Shown piece after piece: positions 34,684 through 50,700 of a stretch of DNA of 64,000 bases; within the stretch, counting starts at the first letter, position 1; the number at the start of each line of letters is the position of its first letter. The notes under the pieces are model-generated. The model searched no databases and was not told the DNA's origin. It saw only the letters and a program-made list of their open reading frames with translations. Where the stretch lies: contig CAIKAF010000004.1 in NCBI GenBank assembly GCA_903825395.1, positions 5,728 through 69,727 of the forward strand. Direction: 5' to 3'. Origin of the DNA: an uncultured Flavobacteriales bacterium (GTDB taxonomy: Bacteria; Bacteroidota; Bacteroidia; CAIKAF01). Both the position numbers and the translations under genes were made by a program.

Positions 34684-37600
34684 TTGTACAAAGGGTGAGG
34701 TTGTTCTGTGCACATACCAAATGGTTTAAGCAAAAGGCGCTTCAGGCCTGCCTTATGTTTGCTTTTGTCGTATTTACATCAACAGCTCTGGCTCAGGTGG
34801 ATACAAATAACCATCGGTTTATGGGCGGGGTTGGTGCCACCGAAGAAGAAGTTTCGTACGATCCGGATTTAAAGCAATATCTAATTGTAAAAAAGATTGG
34901 AGGGGCTGAGATTTCGAGGCAATATTTATCGGAAAAGGAATACCGCACCCGTCAATCTGCCCGTGAAATCATGGATTATTGGAAGAAAAAAGAGAAGGAA
35001 AAATCCTCGGGCAAAGAAAGCAATTCCCTGATTCCAAAAATAAATTTGGCCAACATCCCGGCTGGACTTGGGAAAATTGATATTCGGGCCACGGGCTCAG
35101 CGGAATTGATTATGGGGATTCGAGTAAACACGAATCAGAACCCAAGCATTCCACTGGCGCAACGCACCATTACCACCTTCCAGTTTGACCAGAACATTCA
35201 GGTGAATGTTACGGGGTCCATTGGAGACAAAATCAAGTTGGGAACGAATTTCAATACGGAGGCCGTATTTGCTTTTGAAAACCAGTTGGATTTAAAGTAC
35301 GAAGGCGGTGAGGATGATATTCTTCAGCTTCTTGAATTTGGCAATGTCAACATGGGATTGACCGGTCAGCTTATTCAAGGCTCCTCCTCCTTGTTTGGGG
35401 TGAAAAACAAATTAAAATTTGGACGATGGGAAATTACCAGCGTATTTAGTCAGCAGCAAGGTCAGCGCCAAAACATCACCGTTCAGGGTGGAGCTCAGGT
35501 AACAGAATTTGATTTGCCGGCAGCAAAATATGAAGCCAACCGGCACTATTTTTTGGGTGATTACTTTAAAAACAACTACGACCAAGCCAATCAAACCTTA
35601 CCCTACATAACCTCGCCCGTAAATATTACGCGCATTGAAGTTTGGGTAACCAACCGCATAAATGCCACTGAAAATATTCGGAATGTAGTGGCCATTTTAC
35701 CTTTGGGAGAGAACCTTCCCAATCCTTCCGGTTACCCTTCAAATGGAGTCAATGGTTTCGACCCTGCAGGCTTGGCTCCCCAGGTGCGTGATATCACCTC
35801 GCAATACTTGTTCAACCAACTGAACAATGGGACTCAGATTGAGAAACTTACTAATGCCCGCCTGCTTGCCCAAAATGAATACACCTTTCACCCCCTACTT
35901 GGCTACATTTCCCTAAACCAGGCTCTGAATGCGGATGAAGTTTTGGCCGTATCGTACGAATTTACGGCAGGGGGACAGACCTACAAAGTGGGGGAATTCT
36001 CTCAGGATTTATCTAGCCCCTCCGCTCTGGTAGTTAAGTTATTAAAATCTTCCAATCTCGACATCAATGAGGCCAACTGGCCCTGGATGATGAAAAACAT
36101 ATATTCCATCGGAGGATTTAATATCGGCCAACAGGACTTCACCTTAAATATATTGTATCAAGATACAGAAACCGGGGTCAAAGTAAACTACTTTCCAAAT
36201 GCGCCCGGAGTGAGTGGTACACCTCTGCTTCAGTTGTTTAATTTGGACCGGCTGAATCCACAAGGCGACCAACAAAAAGATGGGTTTTTTGACTTTTTAG
36301 AGGGCAAAACCATTATCGCTCAAAATGGGCGGATTATTTTCCCTGTTGCTGAGCCTTTTTCAACCCGATATTTGGCTCAGATATTTACCAAAGCCAATCA
36401 ATCCAATCCCGGCATAGATATTCAAGCGATGACGGAACGCTATGCCTTTGATCAGTTGTACGAAAATATTCAGGAGCTGGCCGAATTAAACCAAGAGAAA
36501 AACAGGTTTTATTTGGGAGGCAGCTATAAAGGTGCCAGTGGATCGGAGATTAGCCTGAATGCCTTTAACGTTCCACAAGGTTCGGTTACCGTTACCGCGG
36601 GGGGGCAAACCCTTCTTGAAAACACCCATTATACGGTGGATTATGCCATTGGCCGGGTTCGTATCATCGATGATGGCATTTTAAGTTCTGGACTTCCCAT
36701 CAACATCTCGATGGAGAACAATGCCACATTCAACATACAGCAGAAGCGGCTGATGGGCACCCACGTAGATTACAAACTCAGTAAAAATTTAGTTGCCGGG
36801 GCCACCATCATGAATTTGAGTGAGCTGCCCTTAACCCAAAAAATTGACATTGGAAATGAGCCGGTGAACAACACCATTTGGGGTGTGGATCTAAACTTCA
36901 GCCGAGAATTGCCCTTTGTTACCCGTCTAGTAGATAAAATTCCGGGGATAGACACCAAGGCCCCCTCCTTGTTGACCTTCAATGGTGAATTTGCCCATTT
37001 GATTCCTGGATTTAATGGGGTGATTGATGCCAATGGGGAGAACGGGGTTTCTTACATTGATGACTTTGAGGCGGCGGAAACGGCCATTGAGATTAAAAGC
37101 CCGCTTCAGTGGAAAATTGGCTCGGTTCCTCAAGACAATCCCGCCTTTCCAAACGGTGGATTTTTCGATGATTTGCGGTATGGGTTTAATCGGGCCAAAC
37201 TGACCTGGTTCACCTTAGACCCGCTTTTCTTCCGGCAAAACACCCAAACTCCGGCCAACGTTTCCAATGACCCTTTGATGCGCGCCAACAACTACCTGCG
37301 TGAGGTGCGCCCGATGGAGGTTTTTCCGGGGTTTCAACCCAATTATACTCAGCAACAAATCAATCAGCAAGTATTTGATATCCATTTTTACCCGGGAGAA
37401 AGGGGCCCATATAATTTTGACATCAATAATTTTGATGAAAGCATTTCGGACCGGATTGCCTTAAAAAATCTCAAATCCAACTTTGGTTTGTTGATGCGGC
37501 GGATGGAAACCACCAACTGGGATGCCGCCAATATTGCCTACATTGAATTTTGGATGATGGACCCCTACCAAGCCAATGACTTGAATCAATTAAAGGAATG

Positions 37601-40600
37601 GGATGTGGGTACTCCTGGAGCCACCAACAGAAACTTATTGCCTGGGGGCGGCGGAGATTTGCTGCTTCAAGTGGGTAATTTGAATGAAGATTTTTTGCGC
37701 GATGGTCGCATGAGTTACGAAAATGGTCTCCCCACGCCTGAGGAGTCCAGACCAACCATTGAAACCGCTTGGGGTAAAATTCCATTGCTACAACCCATAA
37801 ATCAGAACTTTGACAATTTACCCGCCAACCGTGACCTTCAAGATGTAGGTTACGATGGGTTGAATGACCAAGAGGAAGGCAGTTTTTTTCAGGCCTTTAT
37901 GAACGATGTGGAGCTTAAATTTGCAGGAAATCCGTCGGCGCTGCAGGATTTAAGAGATGACCCGGCGGGTGACAACTTCAGGCATTATGCCGGATTAAGC
38001 TACGACAACAGCACCAACATTCCCGGAGAGAACTACATTCACAACCGATACAAGCATTTTCTTGGCCCCGACGGGAATAGTCCGGCAGAAAACAACACCG
38101 AGGCCTATGGTGTAGTTCCGAATAGCGAGGACATTAATGTCAACTATACCTTAGACCAACCTGAAAGTTATTATCAATACCGCATTAGTCTAAGGCAAAA
38201 TGACCTGGACGATATCGGAGAAAACTTTATTACAGACATTTTAAATACCACCGTTTCGGTACCTGGACCTTCTGGCGGCACCATCAATAAACCGGTGAAG
38301 TGGATTCAGTTCCGAGTACCCATTTATGCGGAACAACGGGAACGCTTTGGCAACATCTCAGATTTCCGTTCCATTCGTTTTATGCGAATGGCCTTGAAGG
38401 AATTTGATGACGATGTGTTTTTGCGCATGGCCACCATGCAATTGGTTCGCTCCGACTGGCGGGTATTTCAGGGCCTAATTGCCGATGTAGCCGATATTTG
38501 GCAGGAAGGTGCTGACTTCAACTCTACCACGGTAAATATTGAAGAAAATACACAAAAGGCTCCATTCCCCTATGTACTGCCTCCGGGCATTACCCGAGAA
38601 ATTGATCCAGCAAACCCCCAGCTTCAGCAACTGAATGAACAGTCGTTGGTGCTGAACGCCTGCGACCTTAAAGATGGGGAAGGAAAGGCCGTCTTCAAAA
38701 ACTCGGAACTGGATTTAAGGGCATATAGATATGTACGTATGAATACTCACTTGGAGTCGCGCGACAACTCCATTTTAGATAGCAACGACGTATCGATTTT
38801 TGTTCGCTTGGGAATGGACGCCTCAGAAAATTATTATGAGTACGAAATTCCTTTAAAGCCCTCGGACGTTTCCATTCAGCCGAATGCTGCCAGCGGAGAC
38901 CCCAACAAAGACTTTGCCTATCGGGAAAACGTATGGCCTGCCGATAATTTGGTGAGCATTGAGCTAAAGCTATTGGCCGATTTGAAACTGCGGAGGAATA
39001 CTGAAGGGGAAAACCCCAATTTAATTTACAGCGATCTGATTGATGGGGCCCGCATTTCGGTTCGAGGAAATCCAAACTTAGCCAATGTTCGAACCATTTT
39101 AATTGGAGTAAGAAACCCCTCCAAGAAAAATAACCCTTGGCAAACAGGGCAACCACAGCCGGACGATGGAATGGCGAAATGCGTTCAAGTTTGGGTGAAT
39201 GAACTTCGTGCCACCGACTACTTTGAATCGGGAGGTTGGGCCGCACTGGCTCGCACTACACTTGATCTATCAGATTTTGGTCAAGTTGGCCTTTCTGTCG
39301 GTACCACTCGTTTTGGTTTTGGTTCTATCGAACAACGGCCTCAAGACAGAAGCCGCGAAAACACCACCAATCTGGATTTAACCACCAAATTTGAATTGGG
39401 CAAGTTTTTTGGAAAAGAGGCCGGGGTAAGTATTCCCGTATTTTTCGGGTATTCAGGCAGCATTGCCAGTCCTCAATTTAATCCCTTAGATCCAGACATT
39501 CTGTTCACCGATGCCCTTGGAGCCTTACCCACTGATTTTTCACGTGACTCCCTGAGCCGTTTGGTGGAAGAAGTAACCGACCGAAAAAGTTTCAACATCA
39601 ACAATATGCGAAAGCAGAGGGGGAAAGATGCTGGCAAACCAAAGCTGTATGATATATCCAACTTCTCGGCCTCCTATTCTTATACCGAGGAATTGTTTCG
39701 CGATACCAAAACAGAATTCAACAACACCTTTCAGCACAAAGCCAGCCTAACCTATGGATTTAGCCCCACCGTAACCTATTGGGAACCCTTTAAACGGAGT
39801 AAAAAACTCAAATCGCCCTGGTTGAAATTTGTTAAAGATTTCAATTTAAGTTTCATGCCCAAACGGCTTGGCTTTAGTGCAAATGTACTTCGAGACTGGA
39901 ATGAGTTTAAGCTTAGAAACACGACCCGTTACGATTTATTGATTGAAACTACCTATCGGAAAAACTTTACTTGGACACGCAATTATGAGTTCCAATACAA
40001 TCCAACCCGAGCCCTAACATTAACCTTCTCTGCCACCAACAATTCCAGAATTGATGAGCCCGAAATGCCCTTAGATAGCCTTGTGCGCCCTCGTACCTCA
40101 TTCTTAGGTCGCAATACCCGTTATACGCATCGTTTTGACGCCAACTATTCCGTTCCAATCAATAAATTTCCGTGGTTTGATTGGGTAAATGTAACCGCCG
40201 GATATGGTGGTGATTTCTCTTGGACGGCGAGCAATCTAGAGCAAACTCCTCAGTCCGGACAATTCACATTGGGCCGCTGGGGGAATGTGGTGCAAAACAA
40301 TCAAACCTTAAAATTGAATGGGCAATTCAATATGAATACCCTGTACCGGAAATCAGACTATTTGAAAAAACTTCACGCTACTCCACAGAAGAACAAAGAA
40401 AAAGATGACGAGCCCATCACCGATTCCAGCAAAGTCAAAATCAAAATCGTTAGCTGGAAATCTCCAAAACCTTTGTCGTTTAAAAAGGATAGGAAGCGTA
40501 CCATCAAGCATCAGTTAAAAACCGAAGATGTAGAAGTGGTCGTGCTGGCACAGAACGGCGACACGGTTAAAGGGAAAGTCGAAGTGGTAGATGACCGTCG

Positions 40601-42080
40601 GATTCGCTTCATAGCTGCCTCTGATGCCAGTGGTGCTGCAGTTTCTATAACAGGAAAACGCATTCGGAAAAAAATGGATTGGGGTGTCATTCCCAACACC
40701 TTAGTAAAAGTGGCCACCGGATTTAAAAACATTTCCGTTAGCTATACCCAAACCAATGGAACTGTACTGCCTGGATACGCTGCAGGTACTGATTTGCTGG
40801 GAATGAATTTGGGCGGAGCCTCCATCGGACCTGATTTTGCTTTCGGGCGGCAATACGACGACCAAGATTTACAAAACAAAATTGTGCAGGACGCCTGGTT
40901 GGTTCGGGATTCTACTCTGAACCAAATGTTTATGCGTACCCATTCCTCAACGCTGAGCGGGAATGCCACCTATGAGCCATTCCGAGGATTCCGAATAACC
41001 TTCAATGCCGACCGCACCTATTCAGAAAACTACCAAACGAACTATCGGTATGTGCCCAGTGAAAACGACTTCCGAACCCAAAACCCCTTGACAATGGGTA
41101 ATTTTAGCATGTCGTACATGACCTTGGGTTCCTTCTTTGATGGCTTAGGGCCTAATTTCAGTTCGCCCACCTTCGACCGCATGCTTCAACACCGCAGTAT
41201 ACTTTCTAAACGGCTTGCCGAACAAAACCCAAACAGCAATGTAAATCCGAACGCCATCTATCAACTTGGGTTTGGAGGCAACCAAACCGATGTATTGTAT
41301 TATTCATTTATTAGTGCATATACCGGCGTTGATGCAGAAGCACAGTCGTTAAACATGTTCCCTCAAATTCCCATTCCCAATTGGAGATTGCAGTTTGATG
41401 GATTGAAAAACATACCGTTTTTCGCAGACCGATTCAAAAACATTGTACTAACGCACAGCTACAAATCGACCTTGGGCGTATCGGGATTCCAATCCAACAA
41501 CGTTTACAACAACTTGAGTTCCGCCTATTGGCAATCCAATCCATTTGGCTACAGTGAATTTGGGGCAGATGGCAACTACATCAGCCGTTTCTTCTTGAAT
41601 TCCGTTAGCATTCAAGAGCAGTTCCAGCCCCTCATCAAGGTTGACATGACCTTCAAAAACGAAGTTCAAACAGCCGTTGAAGTAAAAAGCAGCCGAAATG
41701 TTAGCCTAAACTTCCCGAACAATCAGGTAACCGAAACCAACTCGTTCGAGGTTAGCGTAGGCGCCGGCTACAAAGTGGCCAAGTTTAAATTGCCTTTCCT
41801 CATTAACGGAAGGCGCTTAGAAAATGGATTTAATGTACGGGCAGATATTGGCTGGCGCGACAATTCTACCATCATCCGTAAAATCCAAGAAGAAGTACAG
41901 CAAATCACCGCTGGTCAACAACAAATCACCATCAAGATTTTCGCGGAATACGAACTGAGCAAATCCATCACCGCTCGGGCATTTGTAGACCATATGGGTA
42001 CAAATCCATTCGTATCAAATCAGTTTCCGAACAGCACCACCAACGGGGGCATTAGCGTACGCTTTACCTTGCAGCCATAA
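34653..42080 (+). CDS. sprA: T9SS outer-membrane translocon SprA/Sov (true start probably 34695-34755)
   Basis: About 2450 aa; FDQNIQVNVTGSIGDK, YEANRHYFL, SYIDDFE, DFRSIRFMRM, VWVNELR; ruvA-sprA synteny. Confidence 0.93.
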   Translation: MDSKSIKLFVVVQRVRLFCAHTKWFKQKALQACLMFAFVVFTSTALAQVDTNNHRFMGGVGATEEEVSYDPDLKQYLIVKKIGGAEISRQYLSEKEYRTRQSAREIMDYWKKKEKEKSSGKESNSLIPKINLANIPAGLGKIDIRATGSAELIMGIRVNTNQNPSIPLAQRTITTFQFDQNIQVNVTGSIGDKIKLGTNFNTEAVFAFENQLDLKYEGGEDDILQLLEFGNVNMGLTGQLIQGSSSLFGVKNKLKFGRWEITSVFSQQQGQRQNITVQGGAQVTEFDLPAAKYEANRHYFLGDYFKNNYDQANQTLPYITSPVNITRIEVWVTNRINATENIRNVVAILPLGENLPNPSGYPSNGVNGFDPAGLAPQVRDITSQYLFNQLNNGTQIEKLTNARLLAQNEYTFHPLLGYISLNQALNADEVLAVSYEFTAGGQTYKVGEFSQDLSSPSALVVKLLKSSNLDINEANWPWMMKNIYSIGGFNIGQQDFTLNILYQDTETGVKVNYFPNAPGVSGTPLLQLFNLDRLNPQGDQQKDGFFDFLEGKTIIAQNGRIIFPVAEPFSTRYLAQIFTKANQSNPGIDIQAMTERYAFDQLYENIQELAELNQEKNRFYLGGSYKGASGSEISLNAFNVPQGSVTVTAGGQTLLENTHYTVDYAIGRVRIIDDGILSSGLPINISMENNATFNIQQKRLMGTHVDYKLSKNLVAGATIMNLSELPLTQKIDIGNEPVNNTIWGVDLNFSRELPFVTRLVDKIPGIDTKAPSLLTFNGEFAHLIPGFNGVIDANGENGVSYIDDFEAAETAIEIKSPLQWKIGSVPQDNPAFPNGGFFDDLRYGFNRAKLTWFTLDPLFFRQNTQTPANVSNDPLMRANNYLREVRPMEVFPGFQPNYTQQQINQQVFDIHFYPGERGPYNFDINNFDESISDRIALKNLKSNFGLLMRRMETTNWDAANIAYIEFWMMDPYQANDLNQLKEWDVGTPGATNRNLLPGGGGDLLLQVGNLNEDFLRDGRMSYENGLPTPEESRPTIETAWGKIPLLQPINQNFDNLPANRDLQDVGYDGLNDQEEGSFFQAFMNDVELKFAGNPSALQDLRDDPAGDNFRHYAGLSYDNSTNIPGENYIHNRYKHFLGPDGNSPAENNTEAYGVVPNSEDINVNYTLDQPESYYQYRISLRQNDLDDIGENFITDILNTTVSVPGPSGGTINKPVKWIQFRVPIYAEQRERFGNISDFRSIRFMRMALKEFDDDVFLRMATMQLVRSDWRVFQGLIADVADIWQEGADFNSTTVNIEENTQKAPFPYVLPPGITREIDPANPQLQQLNEQSLVLNACDLKDGEGKAVFKNSELDLRAYRYVRMNTHLESRDNSILDSNDVSIFVRLGMDASENYYEYEIPLKPSDVSIQPNAASGDPNKDFAYRENVWPADNLVSIELKLLADLKLRRNTEGENPNLIYSDLIDGARISVRGNPNLANVRTILIGVRNPSKKNNPWQTGQPQPDDGMAKCVQVWVNELRATDYFESGGWAALARTTLDLSDFGQVGLSVGTTRFGFGSIEQRPQDRSRENTTNLDLTTKFELGKFFGKEAGVSIPVFFGYSGSIASPQFNPLDPDILFTDALGALPTDFSRDSLSRLVEEVTDRKSFNINNMRKQRGKDAGKPKLYDISNFSASYSYTEELFRDTKTEFNNTFQHKASLTYGFSPTVTYWEPFKRSKKLKSPWLKFVKDFNLSFMPKRLGFSANVLRDWNEFKLRNTTRYDLLIETTYRKNFTWTRNYEFQYNPTRALTLTFSATNNSRIDEPEMPLDSLVRPRTSFLGRNTRYTHRFDANYSVPINKFPWFDWVNVTAGYGGDFSWTASNLEQTPQSGQFTLGRWGNVVQNNQTLKLNGQFNMNTLYRKSDYLKKLHATPQKNKEKDDEPITDSSKVKIKIVSWKSPKPLSFKKDRKRTIKHQLKTEDVEVVVLAQNGDTVKGKVEVVDDRRIRFIAASDASGAAVSITGKRIRKKMDWGVIPNTLVKVATGFKNISVSYTQTNGTVLPGYAAGTDLLGMNLGGASIGPDFAFGRQYDDQDLQNKIVQDAWLVRDSTLNQMFMRTHSSTLSGNATYEPFRGFRITFNADRTYSENYQTNYRYVPSENDFRTQNPLTMGNFSMSYMTLGSFFDGLGPNFSSPTFDRMLQHRSILSKRLAEQNPNSNVNPNAIYQLGFGGNQTDVLYYSFISAYTGVDAEAQSLNMFPQIPIPNWRLQFDGLKNIPFFADRFKNIVLTHSYKSTLGVSGFQSNNVYNNLSSAYWQSNPFGYSEFGADGNYISRFFLNSVSIQEQFQPLIKVDMTFKNEVQTAVEVKSSRNVSLNFPNNQVTETNSFEVSVGAGYKVAKFKLPFLINGRRLENGFNVRADIGWRDNSTIIRKIQEEVQQITAGQQQITIKIFAEYELSKSITARAFVDHMGTNPFVSNQFPNSTTNGGISVRFTLQP

Positions 42081-42928
42081 AGCCAATTATTGAGGCGTAT
42101 ACAGAGAGAATTTTATGGCTTCCCGTTTAATCTCACTGACCCAATTTCGACCCTTTTTTTTAAGGAAAATGGAGGTGTTCAAGGGCCAGATTAAACCTGC
42201 CTTTTCATAAAATTCATAGTTTACATGTAGATTTTTGTTCGCCCCCCCTTATTCTCAACCGTTGAGTAAAACTTAAAAAATCATTTTTTTGAAATTACCC
42301 AAACTGCCTTCTGCCTTTATTTAGCACGCCCTTTGGAAATTTTAATCCATGAAAATGTCTGTTCCTAAACCAAAAAAATGGCCTTCCACCTTGAAACTTT
42401 GATAATCCTCGCGTAAATTCGTAGTTCATCGATGAAACGTTAAAAAGGAACACTTCGTCACGTATTTGGGGTGGCGAAGAATAGTTAGGGCACTTTTTGG
42501 AGTGAACTACGGGAATCTGGGGAAGTTGAAAAATGGAACCAGGTTCGCCTTGGGGAGTCTCAGAAAAGCTTTCTGAATCGTGCAAAGGAAACTTTGCTGG
42601 TGCGGGAAGCGGGAGCATGGGAATGAGACTGGATGAACTGGCAAATTCATCCTTTTTACAGGAGGGAAAATTGGAAGGGGATTTGAGGAGGAGGGGAAAG
42701 AGGAGGGGGTCAAATAAAATTTCAAGTTTCCTTTACGTCGGGGAAAACGTTGGCGACCCGAAGGGCGCGAGGCAACCTTTTTTGGGTAAAGCTTAAGCGC
42801 AGCCTTCAGGAAATCGCTATTGGCGGCAACCTCATTTCCCCAAAAAGGGAAGCCCGACCCCATTCCCCCCAAGCCCCCCAACACCTCCAACACAAAGTTC
42901 AACCCACCATAAAAGCCAGGAGTAGGCC

Positions 42929-43070
42929 GCGGCAGGGATTGAACAGGGTAGCACGCAGGGGGGCGGAGCCTGGCCCGCGCGGCGCGGAGGCGACTTTAGG
43001 AGCCCCCGCAAGCCCGCTGGGCCAGCCTCCCGCCCCACGCGGACTACCCGTGAAAGCCCGTCAGCCGCCC
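42929..43070 (+). repeat. Structured ~143-bp dispersed hairpin element, copy 4
   Basis: GCGGCAGGGATTGA-AC-A-GGGTAG...GCGAC-TTTA-GGAGC...CTACCC-GT-GAAAGCCCG...CCGCCC. Confidence 0.9.
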
Positions 43071-43156
43071 AAATCACCCCATTCCCACACCGCTTGAACC
43101 GCGAAAATCTGCTCAGCTCTGCCATTAAATCCATACCTTTGTGCAAAATTATCCTC

Positions 43157-44557
43157 ATGAATTCCTTTCAGGTTGTTGTTATTGGATCGGGGCCTGGCGG
43201 CTACGTTGCGGCAATCCGTTGCGCCCAATTGGGGCTCAAAACTGCGCTGATTGAAAAATATTCCACCTTAGGCGGAACCTGCCTGAATGTGGGGTGCATC
43301 CCATCTAAAGCGCTGCTAGACAGCTCGGAACATTATTACAATGCCAGCCATACCTTTGCCGAGCACGGAATTGAACTGTCGAACGTGTCGGTGAATTTCG
43401 GACAAATGATCGCCCGGAAAAATGAGGTGGTGGCCCAAACTTGTGCCGGTGTAGCGGGTCTGATGAAAAAAAATGGAGTCACCGTATTTCATGGCATGGG
43501 TTCTTTCAAATCCAAAGGCATCATTCAGGTGCAGGGCAGCGATGGCAGCACCGAATTGAGCTATGAAAAAGCCATTATTGCGACGGGCTCTAAGCCGTCC
43601 GGCCTTCCCGGCATTGTGCCCGACAAAAAACGCATCATCACTTCGACCGAGGCCTTGAATCTGAAAGAAATTCCCTCGCATTTGCTGGTCATTGGCGGCG
43701 GAGTCATTGGATTGGAAATGGGTTCGGTGTATGCGCGACTGGGCTCAAAGCTCAGCATTGTAGAGTTCGCCGACCGACTCATTCCCGGTTTTGACAGTGC
43801 CATGAGCAAAGATTTGGCTCGGGTAATGAAAAAACTGGGGGCCGACATTTACACTGAAACTCGGGTAACTTCCGTAAAAAATAAGGGCAAACAAGTGGTG
43901 GTGACGGCGGAAAACAAAAAGGGGGAGACCTTCGAGTGGAATGTGCCGTACTGCTTGGTTTCCGTGGGCCGCAAGCCGTACACCGAGGGATTGAATTTGA
44001 GCGCCTTGGGGCTCGCCACCGATGAGCGGGGGCGGATTCCGGTGAATGACCACTTGCAAACGGCAGATGCTTCCGTATATGCCATTGGAGACGTGGTGCG
44101 GGGTGCGATGCTGGCGCACAAGGCCGAAGAAGAGGGCATGTTGGTGGCTGAAATCATTGCGGGGCAGCAGCCGCACATCAATTATTTGCTCATTCCGAAC
44201 GTGGTGTACACCTGGCCTGAAGTGGCTTCGGTGGGGCATACGGAAGAGGAGTTGAAGTCGGCAGGTCGGGCGTACAAAGTGGGCAGTTTCCCCTTCCGAG
44301 CCAGTGGTCGGGCGCGCGCAAGCATGGATTTAGACGGTCAGGTTAAAGTACTGGCTGACAAAGAGAATGACGAAATTTTGGGGGTTCATATCATTGGTCC
44401 TCGGGCGGCCGACATGATTGCTGAGGCCGTAGTGGCCATGGAATATCGGGCTACGGCCGAGGACATTGCACGGATGAGCCATGCGCACCCCACCTATACC
44501 GAGTCGTTCCGCGAGGCTTGCTTGGCGGCCACAGAGAATCGGGCGATTCACATTTAA
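43157..44557 (+). CDS. lpdA: Dihydrolipoyl dehydrogenase
   Basis: GSGPGGY, GGTCLNVGCIPSK, GGGVIGLE, HAHPT; ATG 43157. Confidence 0.97.
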   Translation: MNSFQVVVIGSGPGGYVAAIRCAQLGLKTALIEKYSTLGGTCLNVGCIPSKALLDSSEHYYNASHTFAEHGIELSNVSVNFGQMIARKNEVVAQTCAGVAGLMKKNGVTVFHGMGSFKSKGIIQVQGSDGSTELSYEKAIIATGSKPSGLPGIVPDKKRIITSTEALNLKEIPSHLLVIGGGVIGLEMGSVYARLGSKLSIVEFADRLIPGFDSAMSKDLARVMKKLGADIYTETRVTSVKNKGKQVVVTAENKKGETFEWNVPYCLVSVGRKPYTEGLNLSALGLATDERGRIPVNDHLQTADASVYAIGDVVRGAMLAHKAEEEGMLVAEIIAGQQPHINYLLIPNVVYTWPEVASVGHTEEELKSAGRAYKVGSFPFRASGRARASMDLDGQVKVLADKENDEILGVHIIGPRAADMIAEAVVAMEYRATAEDIARMSHAHPTYTESFREACLAATENRAIHI

Positions 44558-44583
44558 ATTAAACATTCAGGGGGTATTTAGTG

Positions 44584-44725
44584 GGGCGGCGGACGGGCTT
44601 TCAGGGCTAATCCGCGGTTGCCGGCGGCTGTCCCAGCGGGCTTGCGGTGGCTCCCAAGGTCGCCTCCGCGCCACGCGGGCCAGGCGCCGCCACCCTTGCG
44701 GGTTAGCCTCTTCAATCCCTGCCGC
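44584..44725 (-). repeat. Structured ~143-bp dispersed hairpin element, copy 5
   Basis: Minus strand GCGGCAGGGATTGA-AG-A-GGCTAA...GCGAC-CTTG-GGAGC...TTAGCC-CT-GAAAGCCCG...CCGCCC. Confidence 0.9.
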
Positions 44726-44865
44726 GGGGGTGGTCATAAGTACACTGTGCTCGGTTTATAATCCAGCCGGTGAGATTTCTTGATTTTAGGCGGCTTTTAA
44801 ACCTGGCTGACAGCAGTTGTAATACCCAATTTAACGGGCTGGGGGTTTGGATTTGGGTTTAAATC

Positions 44866-44938
44866 AGGTATAATTTTAGCTAAACCTCATGAATCTCTGA
44901 GGAACCTCAGTCCGCTCCAGTACAAACAAAAACAATAG
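44866..44938 (+). pseudogene. Possible IS3-family transposase C-terminal remnant
   Basis: RYNFS-(frameshift)-KPHESLRNLSPLQY* resembles the YN..RPHxSL..xP motif. Confidence 0.4.
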
Positions 44939-45063
44939 CAGTCATTAGGTTTTTAAAGGCATACAGCACAAAGAATAAGTCCGAATAAAATGCGACGACA
45001 AAGTCAGCGCATTAAAAGAGAAGATTCTCCGTGACCGAATCAATATCCCTGACGGGTTGCTCC

Positions 45064-45402
45064 TCAGCAGAGCCCGTTTCCGTTTCTTGATTGGCAAAAT
45101 GAAATTAAACACAAATTTGTATAATTAAAACCTGTCCTAAAAATGGGGTGGTTACAACAGGAAATTGATTTTTTGGCCCCGCCCAAAACTCCGATGGGTG
45201 GACCACGGGAGCCGAAGATTTCAAGCGTAATGAGCTTACCTTTTTTGCAGCAGGGGCAACGGCGGTGTAGACTTTGTACAACCGCAACGGCAGGAGCAGC
45301 CTCACTTAGTTGTTTCTGCAAAACTGGTAGGCGTCTGGCCTTGGCTGTGATGCTCAAAAAGCCATAATGCCTAATGCGTGCGAAGCCCTTGGGGAATGTC
45401 AA
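45064..45402 (-). mobile_element. IS91-family (Y2 HUH) transposase, C-terminal fragment only
   Basis: PKGFARIRHYGFLS, CPCCKKG, RGPP; N-terminal HUH part absent. Confidence 0.85.
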
Positions 45403-45462
45403 AAAATGGGGTATTTTTGAGAGGATTATTTATTTAAATAAGGAGTTTTTAGAGGAACTGCC

Positions 45463-45472
45463 GTTAGGTGCC
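45463..45472 (+). other. Cassette 1 start core site GTTAGGTGCC
   Basis: Exact reverse complement of GGCACCTAAC at 46086-46095. Confidence 0.75.
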
Positions 45473-45494
45473 ATTCCGGAAGCCTATAGATAAG

Positions 45495-46082
45495 ATGACA
45501 ATAAGTGAAGCAAAAAGTATTTTAGGTTTAACGCAAGGGGCACAATGCCCGAGTGATTTGAAAAAAACATTCAAAAAGTTAATGCTTCAGTGGCACCCTG
45601 ACATTGCCATCAACAAAGGAATTTCATCTCAAGAGGCGACAGAAAAAAGTCAACAAATCATTTTAGCGTATGAAATCTTGTCTGAAAATTTAGCCTCATT
45701 AGATGGCGAGACATTTGAATACACTTATCAATCGTATTATCAGTATAAAACTGCGACAAAGAAAAACTATAAGCAATATTACGACCACAACATAGACGAA
45801 ATTGACGCAAGTTTCGTAAATAGGATTACTGTAAAATCTTCAAATGTCAAGTGGATCGATTATATCAGAGATTTGCAGATATTGGTGGTTCGATTCAAAG
45901 GAAGTTCAGGATATTATCTCTACTATGACGTTCCTGAAAATATCTTTGAAAAATTTCGTACGACGGAGTCTCCTGGGCGATTTGTGCATCAATATTTGCG
46001 TGGATATAAATACGATTCTTATGGTATATATGCTGATTGGCTGAATGTCTATAAAAGTTTGAGTGAAATAACAGACAATTAG
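45495..46082 (+). CDS. J-domain (DnaJ) - KTSC domain fusion protein; cassette 1 cargo
   Basis: ILGL...LKKTFKKLMLQWHPD...I..AYEIL; VKSSNVKWIDY...LVVRFK...YLYYDVP...SPGRFVHQYLR; ATG 45495. Confidence 0.82.
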   Translation: MTISEAKSILGLTQGAQCPSDLKKTFKKLMLQWHPDIAINKGISSQEATEKSQQIILAYEILSENLASLDGETFEYTYQSYYQYKTATKKNYKQYYDHNIDEIDASFVNRITVKSSNVKWIDYIRDLQILVVRFKGSSGYYLYYDVPENIFEKFRTTESPGRFVHQYLRGYKYDSYGIYADWLNVYKSLSEITDN

Positions 46083-46085
46083 AGC

Positions 46086-46201
46086 GGCACCTAACAGCAC
46101 CTTTGCAAAAAAGCGGTAATGTACGTTGAAGTGAACATTTTTAAAAGAACAATTGCGGTTCGCAATCCGCTTCTTCGCAATGCTGCAAACCGTTGGCAAT
46201 C
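46086..46201 (+). other. attC-like recombination site 1
   Basis: ACCTAAC 6 nt after stop...GTTGGCA; inner pairing CAGCA/TGCTG, TTGC/GCAA, AAGCGG/CCGCTT; about 110 bp. Confidence 0.75.
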
Positions 46202-46223
46202 CAAACAAAAAACCTAAACCACC

Positions 46224-46254
46224 TTGTAAATTAGAAAATAATCCTATAAATTTG
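46224..46254 (+). promoter_or_regulatory. Bacteroidota housekeeping promoter inside the TA cassette
   Basis: TTG(46224)-N20-TAAATTTG(46247). Confidence 0.7.
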
Positions 46255-46276
46255 TTACCTAAATAGACAACACCGT

Positions 46277-46510
46277 GTGCCGACTGTAAAAACGATTGAT
46301 AACATAAAGATTGACATTTACTCGCGCGACCATCCACCACCGCACGTTCATGCGAAATTCGCTGAATTTGAAGAGTTGATAGAAATTGAAACGTTGGAGA
46401 CTTATGCGGGAAAAATACCCAAAGCACAGAGAAAAAAAGTAACAGACTGGGCGGCAAACAACCAAAAATTCCTTTTGGAGATTTTCAATAAATTAAATCC
46501 AAGGCCATGA
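46277..46510 (+). CDS. DUF4160 domain protein (putative toxin)
   Basis: IYSRDHPPPHVHA motif; 77 aa; ATGA overlap with partner gene. Confidence 0.85.
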   Translation: MPTVKTIDNIKIDIYSRDHPPPHVHAKFAEFEELIEIETLETYAGKIPKAQRKKVTDWAANNQKFLLEIFNKLNPRP

Positions 46511-47028
46511 GACAGAAAATTAAGATACCCAGAATAGTAAAAATCGAAAAGATTTCAGGACATAAAATCCAATGCATGTTTAACAACGGTGAGTCCCGAT
46601 TGCTTGACTTTGAAAAAATTTTCAAACAATGGAATGTAACCGAAAACGATTTTGAATATCCGCTCCTTGACGAAAAAAAATTTAAGAAAGTAAAACTCAG
46701 AAATTATACCTTATCATGGCCAAACATTGAAATTAAAGTAAATGGAGAAAACGGGGAAAACTTGAACGTGCCCTACGAAATCGGGGCTGATGTTCTTTTC
46801 GAACTTAGCGAAGATGTTAAAGAGCCTTCAAAATACCGATACGGCAGACTGATAAGAAGTGCCAGATTAAAGGCAGGATTGACGCAAGAGCAATTAGCCA
46901 TGAAAAGCGGGACAACAAGATTTTATATTTCACGCATAGAAAATGATAAGACCGACCTTGAGATGTCGACATTTCGAAAGATCGTGGAAGCTGGACTTGG
47001 AAAGAGACTTAAATTGACTATCGAATAA
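46507..47028 (+). CDS. DUF2442 - XRE HTH fusion (putative antitoxin)
   Basis: I..FNNGE.R.LDF...TLSWPN...D.L; ARLKAGLTQEQLA...YISRIEN. Confidence 0.82.
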   Translation: MRQKIKIPRIVKIEKISGHKIQCMFNNGESRLLDFEKIFKQWNVTENDFEYPLLDEKKFKKVKLRNYTLSWPNIEIKVNGENGENLNVPYEIGADVLFELSEDVKEPSKYRYGRLIRSARLKAGLTQEQLAMKSGTTRFYISRIENDKTDLEMSTFRKIVEAGLGKRLKLTIE

Positions 47029-47033
47029 ATTAC

Positions 47034-47094
47034 GATTGCCAACAGCTCATCTTTCGGGCGGCGCATAGCGCCCAACATGAAAGATTCGTTGAAC
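47034..47094. other. attC-like recombination site 2 (58-61 bp hairpin)
   Basis: GATTGCCAAC (reverse complement of GTTGGCAATC 46192-46201); ATCTTTC/GAAAGAT and GCGC/GCGC stems; GTTGAAC. Confidence 0.7.
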
Positions 47095-47166
47095 GAACCG
47101 CTGCATTCCCCCTATGGGTTTTTCTATATGATTTTAGAGGTGTAGAGGTCAGCCTTTCGGGCGATA

Positions 47167-47295
47167 ATGACCTCAATGCCCTTTGGAGTAGAGGTTTTTA
47201 CGGAAAACTTAACTTCATGAATCAAGGTGATAAATTACGCGTGCTCTATTGTATTTGTTGCGGTTGATGAGCAGGGAAGTAAAAGGAAACTTCAG
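47167..47295 (+). pseudogene. Acyl-CoA thioesterase (hot-dog fold) C-terminal remnant
   Basis: MTSMPFGVEVFTENLTS*IKVINYACSIVFVAVDEQG with in-frame TGA at 47218. Confidence 0.55.
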
Positions 47296-47570
47296 GTATT
47301 AAACGTATCCCACACGAATAACACCCCGCCCAGACCTTCCTTCATATTGAGGGCTCGATTTTTCCTCCAAGGGGAAAATGCCGGCAGCCTTGATTCAGGC
47401 AAGGAAAACCTATGTGCTGTTGGAATTAATCTCGGCTGCCTGAAAAGTTCAACCGTGCCCACCCAACCCCACCCACTTCATTTTGATTAAAAAAGTACCC
47501 CCAACACAAAAATTACCCCCAAAATCAATTTGGCATTATGCACATATCGCATTATATTTGCACCCTCAAT

Positions 47571-47641
47571 TGCCCGATCGTCTAACGGTAGGACCGCAGT
47601 TTTTGGTACTGCTTGTGGTGGTTCGAATCCATCTCGGGCAA
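47571..47641 (+). tRNA. tRNA-Gln (TTG)
   Basis: TGCCCGA/TCGGGCA acceptor stem, GCAGT-TTTTGGT-ACTGC anticodon arm, GTTCGAATCC; promoter TATATTTG 47553. Confidence 0.96.
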
Positions 47642-47644
47642 CGA

Positions 47645-47669
47645 AAGCGCTCTTCGGAGCGCTTTTTTT
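47645..47669 (+). terminator. Rho-independent terminator after tRNA-Gln
   Basis: AAAGCGCTC-TTCG-GAGCGCTTTTTTT. Confidence 0.88.
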
Positions 47670-47757
47670 GTTATCCCCCAACTTAAACCCAATCTTAACA
47701 AAGAAATCAGCCTGCCTCACATTGGTTTTTAGTATCTTGAACCCAAATATTATTGGA

Positions 47758-50700
47758 ATGATTCGATTTGTGCTCCTTTGGCTCTTAATGCCAATCTGCG
47801 TTTTCGCCCAAACCGATACCGAATTTTGGTTTGTGGCTCCAGAAGTTCAGCAAAGCCATGGAGACCGACCCATTACTGTTCGCCTATCCACGGCTCAACA
47901 GGCCGCTTCCGTTCAAATTACTATGCCCATCAACCCGGGATTCCCACCCATTAACGCCATCATCCCCCCCAATACTACCCAATCGTTCGACCTTACTCTT
48001 TGGGTAGATTTACTGGAAAATAAACCCGCCGATGTGGTTTTGGATAAGGCCCTACGTATCGTTTCTTCCTCCCCCATAACCGCATATTATGAAGTGGTAA
48101 CCTCCTGCAACTGCAATCCGGATATTTTTACGCTTAAAGGCCGAAATGCCCTCGGCACGTCCTTCATGCTGCCCTTTCAAACATTCCTCAATAACGGAGT
48201 GGGAAATGCCTGGAGTGGGTTTGATATTGTTGCCACTCAGCCCAATACCAGCATTACCATTACCCCTACCGCAGCCATTGTAGGCCACCCTGCAGGTGTT
48301 CCATTCACCATCACACTAAACATGGGCGAAACTTGGAGCGGGGTATCAACTTCTCAAAGTTTCACACAACGCCCTAGCGGTACCACCATTACCTCCGATA
48401 AGCCCATCGCGGTTACCATTAAAGACGATTCCATGAATGGAGGCGTTTATGGAGGCTGTGCCGATTTGATGGGCGACCAAATGATTCCGTTGCCCCTGCT
48501 CGGTACCGAATACATTACCATCAAAGGATACTTAAATGGTCCCGACCGGGTTTTTGTTATGGCCACCCAAAACAACACTCAAGTTACCATTGATGGCACT
48601 GTGGTTGGCACCATCAACGCAGGACAAAGCTATACCCACATACAATCTGCAAATACGGCATTCATTCAAACCAGCTTGCCCGTTTATGTGCTGCATACTA
48701 CTGGCTTTGGCTGCGAAGTCGGAGGCGCCGTGCTTCCTACCATCGTTTGCACCGGAAGCCAACAGATTGGTTTTACCCGAAGTACCACTGAGTTTTTTGC
48801 CTTAAATCTAATGGTTAAAACCGGCGGAGAAGGAAATTTCACCCTCAATGGCAATCCCAACCTGATTACAGCCGGAAACTTCGCCCAAGTCCCGGGCTCC
48901 AACGGAAATTGGATGTACGCTCAAATTCAATTCAATACCACAGACATCCCCCAAGGACAGGCTAGCCTAATCTCGAACTCTTCGCATTTGTTCCATATGG
49001 GGGTAATAAATGGAGGTGCCTCCTCCGGGTGTCGATATGGATATTTTTCAGATTATTCCGCTTATCAGTTTGATGCAAGTTCCACCACCGATTCCCTCTG
49101 CCAGGGCGGAAATTTAATTTTAAGCGCCAACCCTTTAAGCGGTGCAGTATATCAGTGGACCGGCCCCAATAACTTTTCAAGTTCAAATCAAATTGATACG
49201 CTATTCAATGTAACCCCAAGCATTTCAGGTTTATACCATTTAACCGGTTCGGTAGGGGCCTGTCCCGTTATTTCCGATAGCGTTTTTGTTTTCATTCAGC
49301 CCACCCCCGCTCCTGCCGTTGCTGCTCCCATTGGTCCCGTTTGCGCCGGCGATACTGCATTTTTAGCCGCTTCAGGTCCCGGAGGCGCTATTTACCAATG
49401 GTCTGGTCCCGGCGGGTTTCAGGCCCAAGGCCAACAAAGCCAAGTGGTAAATATCAATTCTCTTCAGTCCGGTTGGTACACCGTGGTCCCCCTGGTGAAC
49501 GGCTGCCCGGGCGACAGCGATCAGGTTTGGGTGCCTGTAGATTCAGTCGCATTAAACGCACAAGCCCTATCGCCTTTATGCAACAATGGATCCACCGGCA
49601 GCATTGTTCTTAGCATCCAATCCGGAATCGCTCCGTTCAGCTACGCATGGAATGGAAATTTACCCCCGCAACCGCAACAAACAAACTTAAGCCCCGGAAG
49701 CTATTCGGTGTTGGTGACCGATTCCAACGGCTGTACTGCAACTTATGCAGTTACCCTGGCCAACCCTACCGCCATTTCGGTTTCGTTAAATGCAACTCCT
49801 GCCACCTGTCCAACCTCCATAGATGGCGTATTGCAGGCTCAAGCCGGAGGAGGAACCGGTCCGCTGACCTTTCAATGGAGCCATGGCCCAACCAGCTTAA
49901 ATCCCCCCTCTGTTGCCGGTGGATGGTACTTCTTAACGGCCACCGACAGCAATGGCTGCGTAAAGACCGATTCGATTTTGGTGCCGGCCCCTCCGCCCCT
50001 GCAAGCTGTTTTTGATTCGGTTGTTGGCCCTCAATGTTTTGGCGATTCAAATGGATTCATTTCGTTGGCGGCCAGCGGAGGCCCCGGAGGATATGCGTAT
50101 GCATGGATTGGGACAGGATATACCCAATCCAGCCAAAACGGTTTGGCTGCAGGCAATTATCAAATTGTGCTCACCGATGGCTTGGGCTGCGACACGCTAT
50201 TTTTAGATACCACCCTACAAGCTCCGCCTCCTGTGGTAGTGAACGCTTCTGCTCCAAGCCCGATTTGCCAAGGATATTCCTTTAACCTAACTGCCTCTGG
50301 CGCTCAATCCTACCTTTGGAACGGAGGAAATACCACTGGAAATTCGAACGACACGGTGAGTACGAGCCTGCAACAAACCACTGTATTTACTGTCATTGGT
50401 TCTATTGGACCTTGTTCAGATACGGCCGAGGTTCAAGTGGCGGTTCTTCCTTCTCCGCAAGCAAACATCAACTGGACCTCCGCCTGCGTCAACGATACCG
50501 TAATGCTGGATGGAAGCGGAAGTCAGGTTGGCAATCCGGCACAGCTTACCCAATGGCTCTGGGATTTGAACGGCGACGGTCAACATGACGCTCAACAAGC
50601 CTCTATTGGACATGTGTTTTCAAGTTCTGGTTCCAAGCCCATTCGTTTGATTATACAGGCCGACAATGGCTGCATAGATACCGTTTTTGCTTCGGCGATA

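Follow-up and report, generated by a model that had tools for sequence, protein, structure and literature searches.

The window, a stretch of 64,000 nucleotides (nt) of DNA from an uncultured Flavobacteriales bacterium (genome G000), carries two neighbouring gene cassettes with integron-like ends at 45463-47043. This locus is probably an orphan relic, riddled with insertion sequences (IS), of an integron-like system in which circles would be inserted at G|TT of hairpin sites by integron-like tyrosine recombinases without the insert specific to the integrase IntI. The evidence consists of the module boundaries, the recurrence of the design, covariation in a hairpin, the absence of IntI and the presence of insert-less recombinases near arrays. 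The integron-like system is common in this class of Bacteroidota; judged by its sequence, the locus in the window itself would be an inactive relic.

Cassette ends and homology breakpoints

Cassette 1 (45463-46095, forward strand, single open reading frame, ORF) starts with R' GTTAGGTGCC at 45463-45472 and ends with R'' GGCACCTAAC at 46086-46095, which begins 3 nt past the TAG stop (46080-46082). Cassette 2 (46192-47043, forward strand, two overlapping ORFs) starts with R' GTTGGCAATC at 46192-46201 and ends with R'' GATTGCCAAC at 47034-47043, 5 nt past the TAA stop (47026-47028). A sequence-only reading of the window had reported these four 10-bp GTT...AAC inverted-repeat ends, and their positions and stop distances were exact. 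It had also described the cargo as richer in AT than its flanks, which agrees with a GC content of 0.35-0.38 inside the cassettes against 0.49-0.57 in the flanks.

For cassette 2, metagenome contigs were scanned with its 173-amino-acid (aa) protein. This gave 36 loci, the closest 19 of which (L088-L106) were compared with window positions 45901-47400. None of the 19 shared DNA past 47046, and 11 stopped at 47042-47046, AAC ending at 47043. Towards the left, no locus shared DNA before 46161, and seven began at 46184-46194, where GTT starts at 46192. Similarity extended ~30 nt into the 3' arm of the upstream hairpin in two loci (L089 and L095); in the others it began later, or contig ends intervened. 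The flanks of all 19 loci differed and consisted mostly of other long hairpins. R' and R'' covaried, GTTGGCAAGC being found with GCTTGCCAAC in L096 and GTTGGCATTC with AATGCCAAC in L101.

Four relatives of cassette 1 were present among genome records. In the nearest (L065, Chitinophagaceae, 79% aa identity), DNA similarity was confined to the segment from (G/A)|TTAG.TGCC through GGCAC.TAAC, with nothing outside. The ends of the other three (L066-L068) were weakly complementary (~7/10 by eye), and a relaxed inverted-repeat search among the relatives (A/GTT heads, 1 mismatch) gave only noise. A search of 300 other genomes of the class with the cassette 1 protein returned nothing at E ≤ 1e-10. 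One relative, 76% identical in protein (L066), lies in a contig binned as a Synechococcus metagenome-assembled genome; either the contig was misbinned or the cassette has spread between phyla.

Thus, neither the 19 loci for cassette 2 nor L065 for cassette 1 shared flanks past GTT and AAC, and the homology of both cassettes broke at these positions, as expected from the claim of the sequence-only reading that integron-like cassettes are joined here at G|TT. The boundary characteristic of integrons (..AAC / G|TT.., with complementarity of a cassette's own ends) is present, and the crossover point would lie within GTT.

Recurrence of the design in other arrays

Similar sites were looked for elsewhere and were found in contig C1 of the same genome and in the genomes G017, G149, G254 and G175. 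Both cassettes of contig C1 have perfect 10-mers; one reads GTTATAACCA...TGGTTATAAC and is followed by a hairpin, the other reads GTTGGGGTTA(A)...(T)TAACCCCAAC and is followed by a 90% copy of the second hairpin of the window. G017, from another genus of the same family, has five cassettes with an end complementarity of 9-10/10. Their cargo comprises a Fic-type gene, an ATPase of 649 aa, a PLD-like pair and two ORFs of 416 and 778 aa.

In the complete genome G149 of the same class, cassettes are separated by a repeat of ~125 nt. Within a 16-kb stretch, the ends were at least 9/10 complementary in all nine consecutive cassettes; among 94 non-adjacent pairs, nine reached this level. The candidate repeats of G149 number at least 110 (40 of them scored), and nearly all are on one strand, in a zone which extends across the record's origin. 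Two complete genomes of other families, G254 and G175, contain chains of eight and five cassettes, respectively, with perfect 10-mers.

Structure of the site hairpins

Cassette 1 is followed by an array-type site hairpin (46096-46191, forward strand) of the form AAC-(A)-long imperfect stem-loop-(C)AAACC-GTT. The complete site attC1 (46086-46201) folds with -17.2 kcal/mol on the forward strand (z -1.4) and -20 kcal/mol on the reverse strand (z -2.3); the forward strand of 46093-46194 gives -16.6 kcal/mol. The order AAC, 1 nt, long imperfect stem-loop, 5 nt, GTT is common to attC1 and to sites in contig C1, G149 and G011, and the 5-nt spacer on the GTT side reads CAAAC, AAACC or AAAAC in these four. 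G254 has spacers of 2/3 nt and G175 of 5/3 nt, and the sites of both are 120-220 nt long.

Canonical attC sites have R and L boxes, a two-sided unpaired central spacer of ~5/6 nt, extrahelical bases and a length of ~57-141 nt. The geometry found here differs, with one-sided spacers of 1/5 nt, spacers of 2/3 or 5/3 nt elsewhere and site sizes from 4 to ~220 nt; these data agree with the earlier statement that the inner stems are non-canonical. An Rfam scan of 42000-49000 at E ≤ 10 returned the tRNA and chance matches only and no attC-like family. A site finder requiring ungapped stems overlooked most true sites, including those of the window, and was dropped.

In many hairpins flanking cassette 2 relatives (L088, L089, L095, L096 and L102; window 46150-46191), an internal motif near GCCCGCAA(A)TCCGC..ACTG was observed. 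The outer stems of such hairpins vary and yet remain paired (e.g., L089 compared to L090). By its sequence, the shared motif points to a widespread family of sites in freshwater metagenomes.

Recombinases of array-bearing genomes

Canonical IntI was defined as a match to TIGR02249 above the curated cut-off of 265 bits. The genome of the window (2.63 Mb, 100% complete) contains no IntI, its top match reaching 78 bits; the sequence-only finding that the window has no intI was hereby extended to the whole genome. None of the five array-bearing genomes has a canonical IntI, and among 401 genomes of the class a single one does (G296, 421.9 bits). The 12-kb surroundings of this gene did not contain repeated sites which could be used as a same-class reference.

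The array ends were inspected in three genomes. A recombinase gene lies beside the array in G149 and G254 and two genes away in G175. There are two such array-head recombinases in G149 (368 and 378 aa), and G254 and G175 have one each (289 and 404 aa, respectively); they are co-oriented with the cassette ORFs where this was checked (G149 and G254). In G017, a related recombinase of 538 aa is encoded at the end of a contig, and no array was seen alongside. The recombinases of G149, G254 and G017 passed NF040815 ("site-specific tyrosine recombinase/integron integrase") with 221-227 bits, and that of G175 scored 185.6 bits, below the cut-off of 220. The recombinases of all four genomes matched TIGR02249 in two separate stretches only (186-218 bits overall, 186-207 bits for those near arrays), and therefore the IntI insert is missing. 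In P0001, a recombinase of 291 aa, 35 residues take the place of 67 in the integrase VchIntIA. The additional domain specific to IntI, by which integrons are defined, was found neither in the genome of the window, nor in five array-bearing relatives, nor in the recombinases beside or near arrays. According to a passage of a preprint (10.1101/542381), the recombinases of IS91 and IS3 elements are members of the integron-like subgroup and are without the IntI insert.

The array zone of G149 (L069, L070) is bounded at both ends by near-duplicate blocks, each with ssb (identical 136-aa protein) and an insert-less recombinase.

The recombinase and IS91 unit

Insert-less recombinases were also found in a two-gene unit. 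P0001 is followed by the IS91 transposase P0002. Recombinases sharing at least 42% identity with P0001 were found at nine loci, and all nine have an IS91 transposase next on the same strand; one further locus of this order has a recombinase with 36% identity to P0001. P0002 matched NF033538 IS91 with 375.6 bits and the Pfam domain Y2_Tnp with 196.8 bits. Copies in G149 start with GTTGAACTAAACC and end with GGTTCCGTTCAAC-AG-hairpin-TAATT, after which GTT is met. The units of G149 and G315 start with GTTGAAC/GTTGCAC and end with ..TTCAAC/..TGCAAC plus hairpin, the ends forming an inverted repeat of ~27 bp in G315. The same unit ends were present in at least seven genera. The units occupy G|TT of array hairpins and point against the direction of the cassette ORFs, and G149 has 4-5 copies at 99-100% identity. 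From these ends, the recombinase and IS91 unit appears to be itself built like a cassette.

The second hairpin of the window, termed hairpin H (47044-47091, reverse strand), is the 3'-terminal hairpin of such a unit and is joined directly to AAC of cassette 2. It continues into a remnant of the inverted-repeat end of the unit (GTTGAACGAACC..., 47092-47156, reverse strand); the rest of the unit is missing. Hairpin H is homologous to hairpins which follow IS91 transposase genes or fragments in G017, G149, G315 and contig C1, and window positions 47039-47156 are 89% identical to C1 6015-6132. In eight copies from four genera, nine of its 15 pairs show compensatory changes and an unpaired A is invariant; this covariation and the bulged A suggest that the site hairpins are functional structures. 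The sequence-only reading had placed a hairpin between each AAC and the next GTT. This is valid for 46096-46191, whereas 47044-47091 is an end of an IS91 unit and does not belong to cassette 2. The candidate that 47044-47091 is the attC of cassette 2 was ruled out by the homology to end hairpins of IS91 units in opposite orientation.

Hairpin H always abuts NAAC (N = T, C or A), namely CTAAC, CCAAC or CAAAC. The IS91 family uses a specific tetranucleotide at the ori end, GAAC/CAAG, to which NAAC is similar, not identical. In contig C15 of G017, the hairpin end lies within an apparent surface-protein gene, which suggests an insertion outside any cassette.

Proposed mechanism

A module consists of a TT-N7 start and a complementary N7'-AAC end, and in intact arrays each module is followed by a long imperfect hairpin ending at G of the next GTT. 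In the circular form, the module ends would pair and lengthen the hairpin as in an integron attC, and cutting and joining at G|TT would be performed by integron-like tyrosine recombinases without the IntI-specific insert, possibly on single-stranded sites. Relatives encode these recombinases both at the head of arrays and as first gene of the mobile unit with an IS91 (HUH/Y2) transposase. In the window, an IS91 unit would have been inserted in reverse at AAC of cassette 2 and then mostly deleted, the hairpin and ~65 nt remaining; cassette 2 would have lost its own site because of this insertion and later truncation. The arrays of this genome (window, C1 and the degraded locus C13 described below) are regarded as orphans because neither enzyme is encoded in it. 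Of the "footprint of circular cassettes" proposed in the sequence-only reading, the GTT/AAC boundaries stand; neither circles nor excision junctions were seen, and the circles themselves are inferred. Its suggestion that a non-IntI tyrosine recombinase, an HUH enzyme or both take part is probably correct, as large arrays lie beside insert-less IntI-like recombinases.

More tentatively, the arrays may represent an analogue of integrons in Bacteroidota, with up to >100 cassettes run by insert-less recombinases, one lineage of which would have been packaged with IS91 as a self-mobile "recombinase cassette"; this extended form is conceivable, with the balance somewhat against it. Such a system would be invisible to IntegronFinder and could be the ancestral or sister state of integrons, and the rolling-circle transposase may supply single-stranded DNA for recombination at hairpin sites.

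Several observations weigh against the proposed orphan integron-like system. The fold energy of attC1 beats shuffled sequences just modestly (z -1.4 to -2.3). Three of the five IS-end-anchored GTT sites of the genome, those in contig C13, have no complementary partner. One junction in G017 (L016 4792-4815) consists of just TGAC from AAC to GTT, without a hairpin, and the two cassettes joined by it have perfect 10-bp end repeats. The hairpin after AAC is not kept among cassette relatives; a true attC travels together with its cassette. Beyond G149, six recombinase loci were sampled and arrays were found at only two, L082-L085 being without an array. A recombinase of either kind is absent from the genome of the window, so that activity cannot be shown here. 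Population data were taken from Logan contigs, from which rare variants are dropped; neither a circle nor an excision junction (45462|46193, 46191|47092) was among the listed joints, and contigs cannot exclude one. Finally, given the likeness of NAAC to the IS91 target, an HUH enzyme could explain at least the insertions of the unit itself.

Alternative explanations

The simplest alternative is chance, i.e., two unrelated 10-bp inverted repeats and terminator-like hairpins beside IS debris. Perfect 10-bp GTT..AAC pairs at most 6 kb apart occur 537 times in the 2.63-Mb genome, and in 13 cases two of them are chained across 20-160 nt, which is not above the chain counts of other trinucleotide heads (1-66). 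The 10-bp repeats alone are no better than chance, as is also compatible with the weak z-scores of the attC1 fold, and the comparative results exceed it. The weight of the case was put on the comparisons because chained repeats alone are unremarkable in this genome. The repeats coincide with the homology breakpoints of 19 metagenome loci and of one genome record, R' and R'' covaried, and the same pattern was found in nine of nine, eight and five chained cassettes of other genomes. With these breakpoint, covariation and chain results, chance appears to be already contradicted, and it is considered extremely improbable. A second alternative keeps the cassettes and replaces their enzyme. The IS91 HUH (Y2) transposase would move them as single-stranded, hairpin-ended mini-elements inserting at NAAC. 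Every hairpin H abuts AAC, a junction similar to the IS91 target at the ori end, and a cassette read in the sense of its ORF ends like the 3' end of the unit (AAC-short spacer-hairpin-5 nt-GTT). Furthermore, single genomes contain several near-identical copies of the unit (G149, for example), and the hairpin end in contig C15 of G017 suggests insertion outside cassettes. However, no IS91 transposase was found in the inspected 20-kb stretches of the G254 and G175 arrays (the search was confined to these stretches of the two genomes). The seven variable bases of R' and R'' differ between cassettes and nevertheless stay complementary, which fits a recombinase reading structure better than an HUH nuclease with sequence specificity. 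In addition, capture by IS91 and ISCR takes DNA adjoining the ter end and not discrete single-gene modules. Transposition of cassettes by the HUH enzyme is thus judged unlikely, and equally doubtful is the accompanying proposal that the tyrosine recombinase has another role, e.g., resolution, and that complementary ends align two cleavage sites. The transposase may well explain the movement of the recombinase and IS91 unit itself.

An ordinary cluster of attC sites lacking integron integrases (CALIN) would have canonical attC cassettes whose canonical IntI was lost or is on another replicon, the IS91 and IS1182-like elements being attC-targeting IS. AAC/GTT cores, complementarity of a cassette's own ends, mostly single co-oriented ORFs, a toxin-antitoxin cassette and AT-rich cargo are classic traits of such clusters. 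IS families and introns which target attC are known (IS1111-attC and group IIC-attC), and G296 has a true IntI. Integrons in Bacteroidota are listed in passages of reviews. On the other side, IntI exceeds the cut-off in just 1 of 401 genomes of the class and in none of the five with arrays. The complete genome G149 combines at least 110 candidate repeats with no IntI and with insert-less recombinases at both array ends. The spacers (1 vs 5 nt) and the site lengths of 4 to ~220 nt are outside the canonical form of 57-141 nt, and Rfam holds no matching family. For Bacteroidetes, a passage of the IntegronFinder 2.0 paper reports a single complete integron (Salinibacter ruber) and otherwise only In0. 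An ordinary CALIN is hence deemed distinctly unlikely, more so than movement by the HUH transposase, and the integron-like system with insert-less recombinases is preferred.

Comparison with known systems and the literature

Integrons and CALINs share with the arrays described here the complementary TT../..AAC ends, the hairpin between AAC and the next GTT, orphan arrays without integrase, mostly single co-oriented AT-rich ORFs and toxin-antitoxin cassettes, and the neighbouring recombinases found here belong to the integron-like subgroup. In contrast to integrons, these recombinases lack the IntI-specific insert. Complementary ends measure 9-11 bp (7 in integrons), the unpaired spacer is one-sided, with 1 nt against 5 nt in the window, the site length varies between 4 and ~220 nt, and the hairpin is not kept with the cassette. 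Moreover, the array-head recombinase is co-oriented with the cassette ORFs (G149 and G254), and the recombinase gene can be inside a cassette-like unit.

A subgroup of the IS91 family in ISfinder carries a tyrosine recombinase gene. Common features are a recombinase followed by a Y2/HUH transposase, a hairpin beyond, GTT/AAC at the hairpin end and multiple copies; the unit described here differs in having inverted-repeat ends (7 to ~27 bp, GTTGAAC...GTTCAAC), in being located at G|TT of array hairpins and in its cassette-like build. IS of the IS1111-attC group and group IIC-attC introns target attC. Similarly, the IS91 unit and the IS1182-like IS are located at the exact recombination point (AAAC|IS|GTT in contig C1), but they belong to other IS families and the host system is non-canonical. 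The pdif (Xer) modules of Acinetobacter plasmids use double-stranded XerC/XerD sites of 28 bp without a hairpin. They are likewise small modules between inversely oriented sites, served by recombinases without the IntI insert and with no dedicated integrase adjoining, whereas long hairpins with AAC/GTT cores serve as sites in the present arrays, which can contain more than 100 units. IS200/IS605 elements have a Y1 HUH transposase, hairpin ends and a tetranucleotide target. End hairpins and insertion by a short specific sequence are shared, and bulged bases may matter in both; their enzyme is Y1 and not Y2, and they have neither a recombinase partner nor a cassette array.

A full-text search of the literature found no paper tying IS91-borne or insert-less recombinases to cassette arrays, although supplementary tables could list some of the arrays as CALINs. 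A passage of a 2024 preprint counts Bacteroidota among clades earlier found without integrons, and passages of two papers place them among the integron-bearing phyla. In the 2016 IntegronFinder paper, a term search found neither Bacteroidetes nor IS91.

Arrays with integron hallmarks were found here in genomes without IntI and beside close IntI relatives which lack the extra domain, in a phylum for which the standard detection tool reports almost no integrons. Integron biology rests on IntI, whose extra domain is held to allow reading of folded attC hairpins. If the insert-less recombinases move cassettes, the origin of integrons would become testable with living intermediates. Aquatic Bacteroidota would then also contain a large hidden reservoir of mobile genes (toxin-antitoxin pairs, Fic, ATPase and PLD-like genes), and the unexplained recombinase gene of many IS91-family elements would have a candidate role.

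Cargo of the two cassettes

The ORF of cassette 1 is listed as 45468-46082 and has a conserved ATG at 45495; its protein matches the Pfam domains KTSC (52.8 bits) and DnaJ (37.9 bits). The first ORF of cassette 2 (46277-46510) matches Pfam DUF4160 above the cut-off (55.7 bits) and is DhiT-like, its score for the DhiT family NF048015 being 60.3 bits against a cut-off of 100. The second ORF (46507-47028, 173 aa) matches HTH_3 with 44.2 bits and DUF2442 with 20.3 bits, below the cut-off of 23.9. On the basis of these domains, cassette 2 encodes a putative toxin-antitoxin pair. A scan for σ70 promoters found 7 compared to 6.2 expected from shuffled sequences, hence no excess. Promoters of Bacteroidota have motifs other than the scanned σ70 consensus. 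A TAnnTTTG-like motif was seen by eye at ~46247; promoter claims go no further.

Left edge and insertion sequences

The left edge of the locus is composed of three IS fragments. A terminal fragment of a multi-copy IS3-like element (44990-45156, strand not assigned) ends exactly where an IS91 fragment begins. With 98-99% identity it matches the initial 140-168 nt of contigs C7, C8, C9, C24, C28 and C31 as well as the end of C3, and its last 40 nt are also found beside a hairpin in G017. The IS3-like assignment was made since the same end precedes an orfA-like start in contig C1. A C-terminal fragment of ~80 aa, probably of an IS91-family Y2/HUH transposase, follows at 45157-45393 (reverse strand). 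The sequence-only reading had noticed this fragment, and its family assignment agrees with 70% identity to P0002 residues 234-312; it has no Pfam match. The fragment is the sole copy in the genome, with DNA matches in G017 and G011, and by its sequence it appears to be a remnant of a tyrosine recombinase and IS91 unit.

A right-end fragment of an IS1182-like IS (67 nt, 45396-45462, forward strand) abuts GTT of cassette 1 with its end ...GAACTGCC and is 89.6% identical to positions 1632-1697 of the 1697-bp element. The left boundary as attI or attC was ruled out by this fragment. In contig C1, two other cassettes likewise have this IS end directly before their GTT, and it also adjoins GTT sites in G017 and G315. 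Contig C1 (L078) contains two 1697-bp copies of the element (607-2303 and 3268-4964, 96.8% identical) with ends GTCAGACTGTC... and ...GAACTGCC; the second copy is located at the exact border of 5-nt spacer and GTT in a cassette site (...CCAAAC|IS|GTT...). From these positions, the IS1182-like element may be an IS which targets cassette sites.

In contig C13 (L079, ~37300-41900), four right-end fragments of this IS (126-326 bp) were observed at distances of 1.3-1.7 kb, together with a partial copy of hairpin H. At least three of the fragments run straight into GTT, and a complementary ..AAC partner was found for none of the three. By its sequence, this locus may be a more degraded array.

Population data and surroundings

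In the Logan contigs, the stretch was found in runs of nine studies, two runs possibly being the source. Contigs of four other studies contain transposase fragment, cassette 1, cassette 2 and hairpin at ≥ 99% identity and approximately the depth of the flanks. In run X9, contigs break at 46193/46222 at the border of cassettes 1 and 2, which hints at alternative neighbours of cassette 2. Three joints (45156>47041, 45161>46186 and 45367>46164) have sides of just 27-34 letters and involve multi-copy ends. A contig of 2129 nt in X6 and X9 consists of 47110-47162, 94 other letters and 45157-47138 and returns on itself. It was not counted as a circle, as it would also fit a tandem copy or a segment flanked by hairpin-backbone sequences in direct repeat, as in G017.

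The region 44558-47527, with the tRNA-Gln gene (47571-47642, forward strand) as right landmark, varies between species. G001 of the same genus has unrelated small membrane-protein genes from lpdA to tRNA-Gln and was for this reason rejected as an empty site. G003 is 98-99% identical in both flanks, and its contigs C107 and C28 end at window positions 44946 and 47463. No match to either cassette was found in the G003 assembly (94% complete, 250 contigs); the cassettes may be present or absent at strain level. An inverted GC-rich repeat of ~145-160 bp flanks lpdA (43094-44557) at 43000-43073 (reverse strand) and 44576-44738 (forward strand). Many copies with 81-93% identity exist in G001, G003 and G006 of the same genus and one in contig C8 of the genome of the window, and the repeat looks like a miniature inverted-repeat transposable element or an element of the repetitive extragenic palindromic type.

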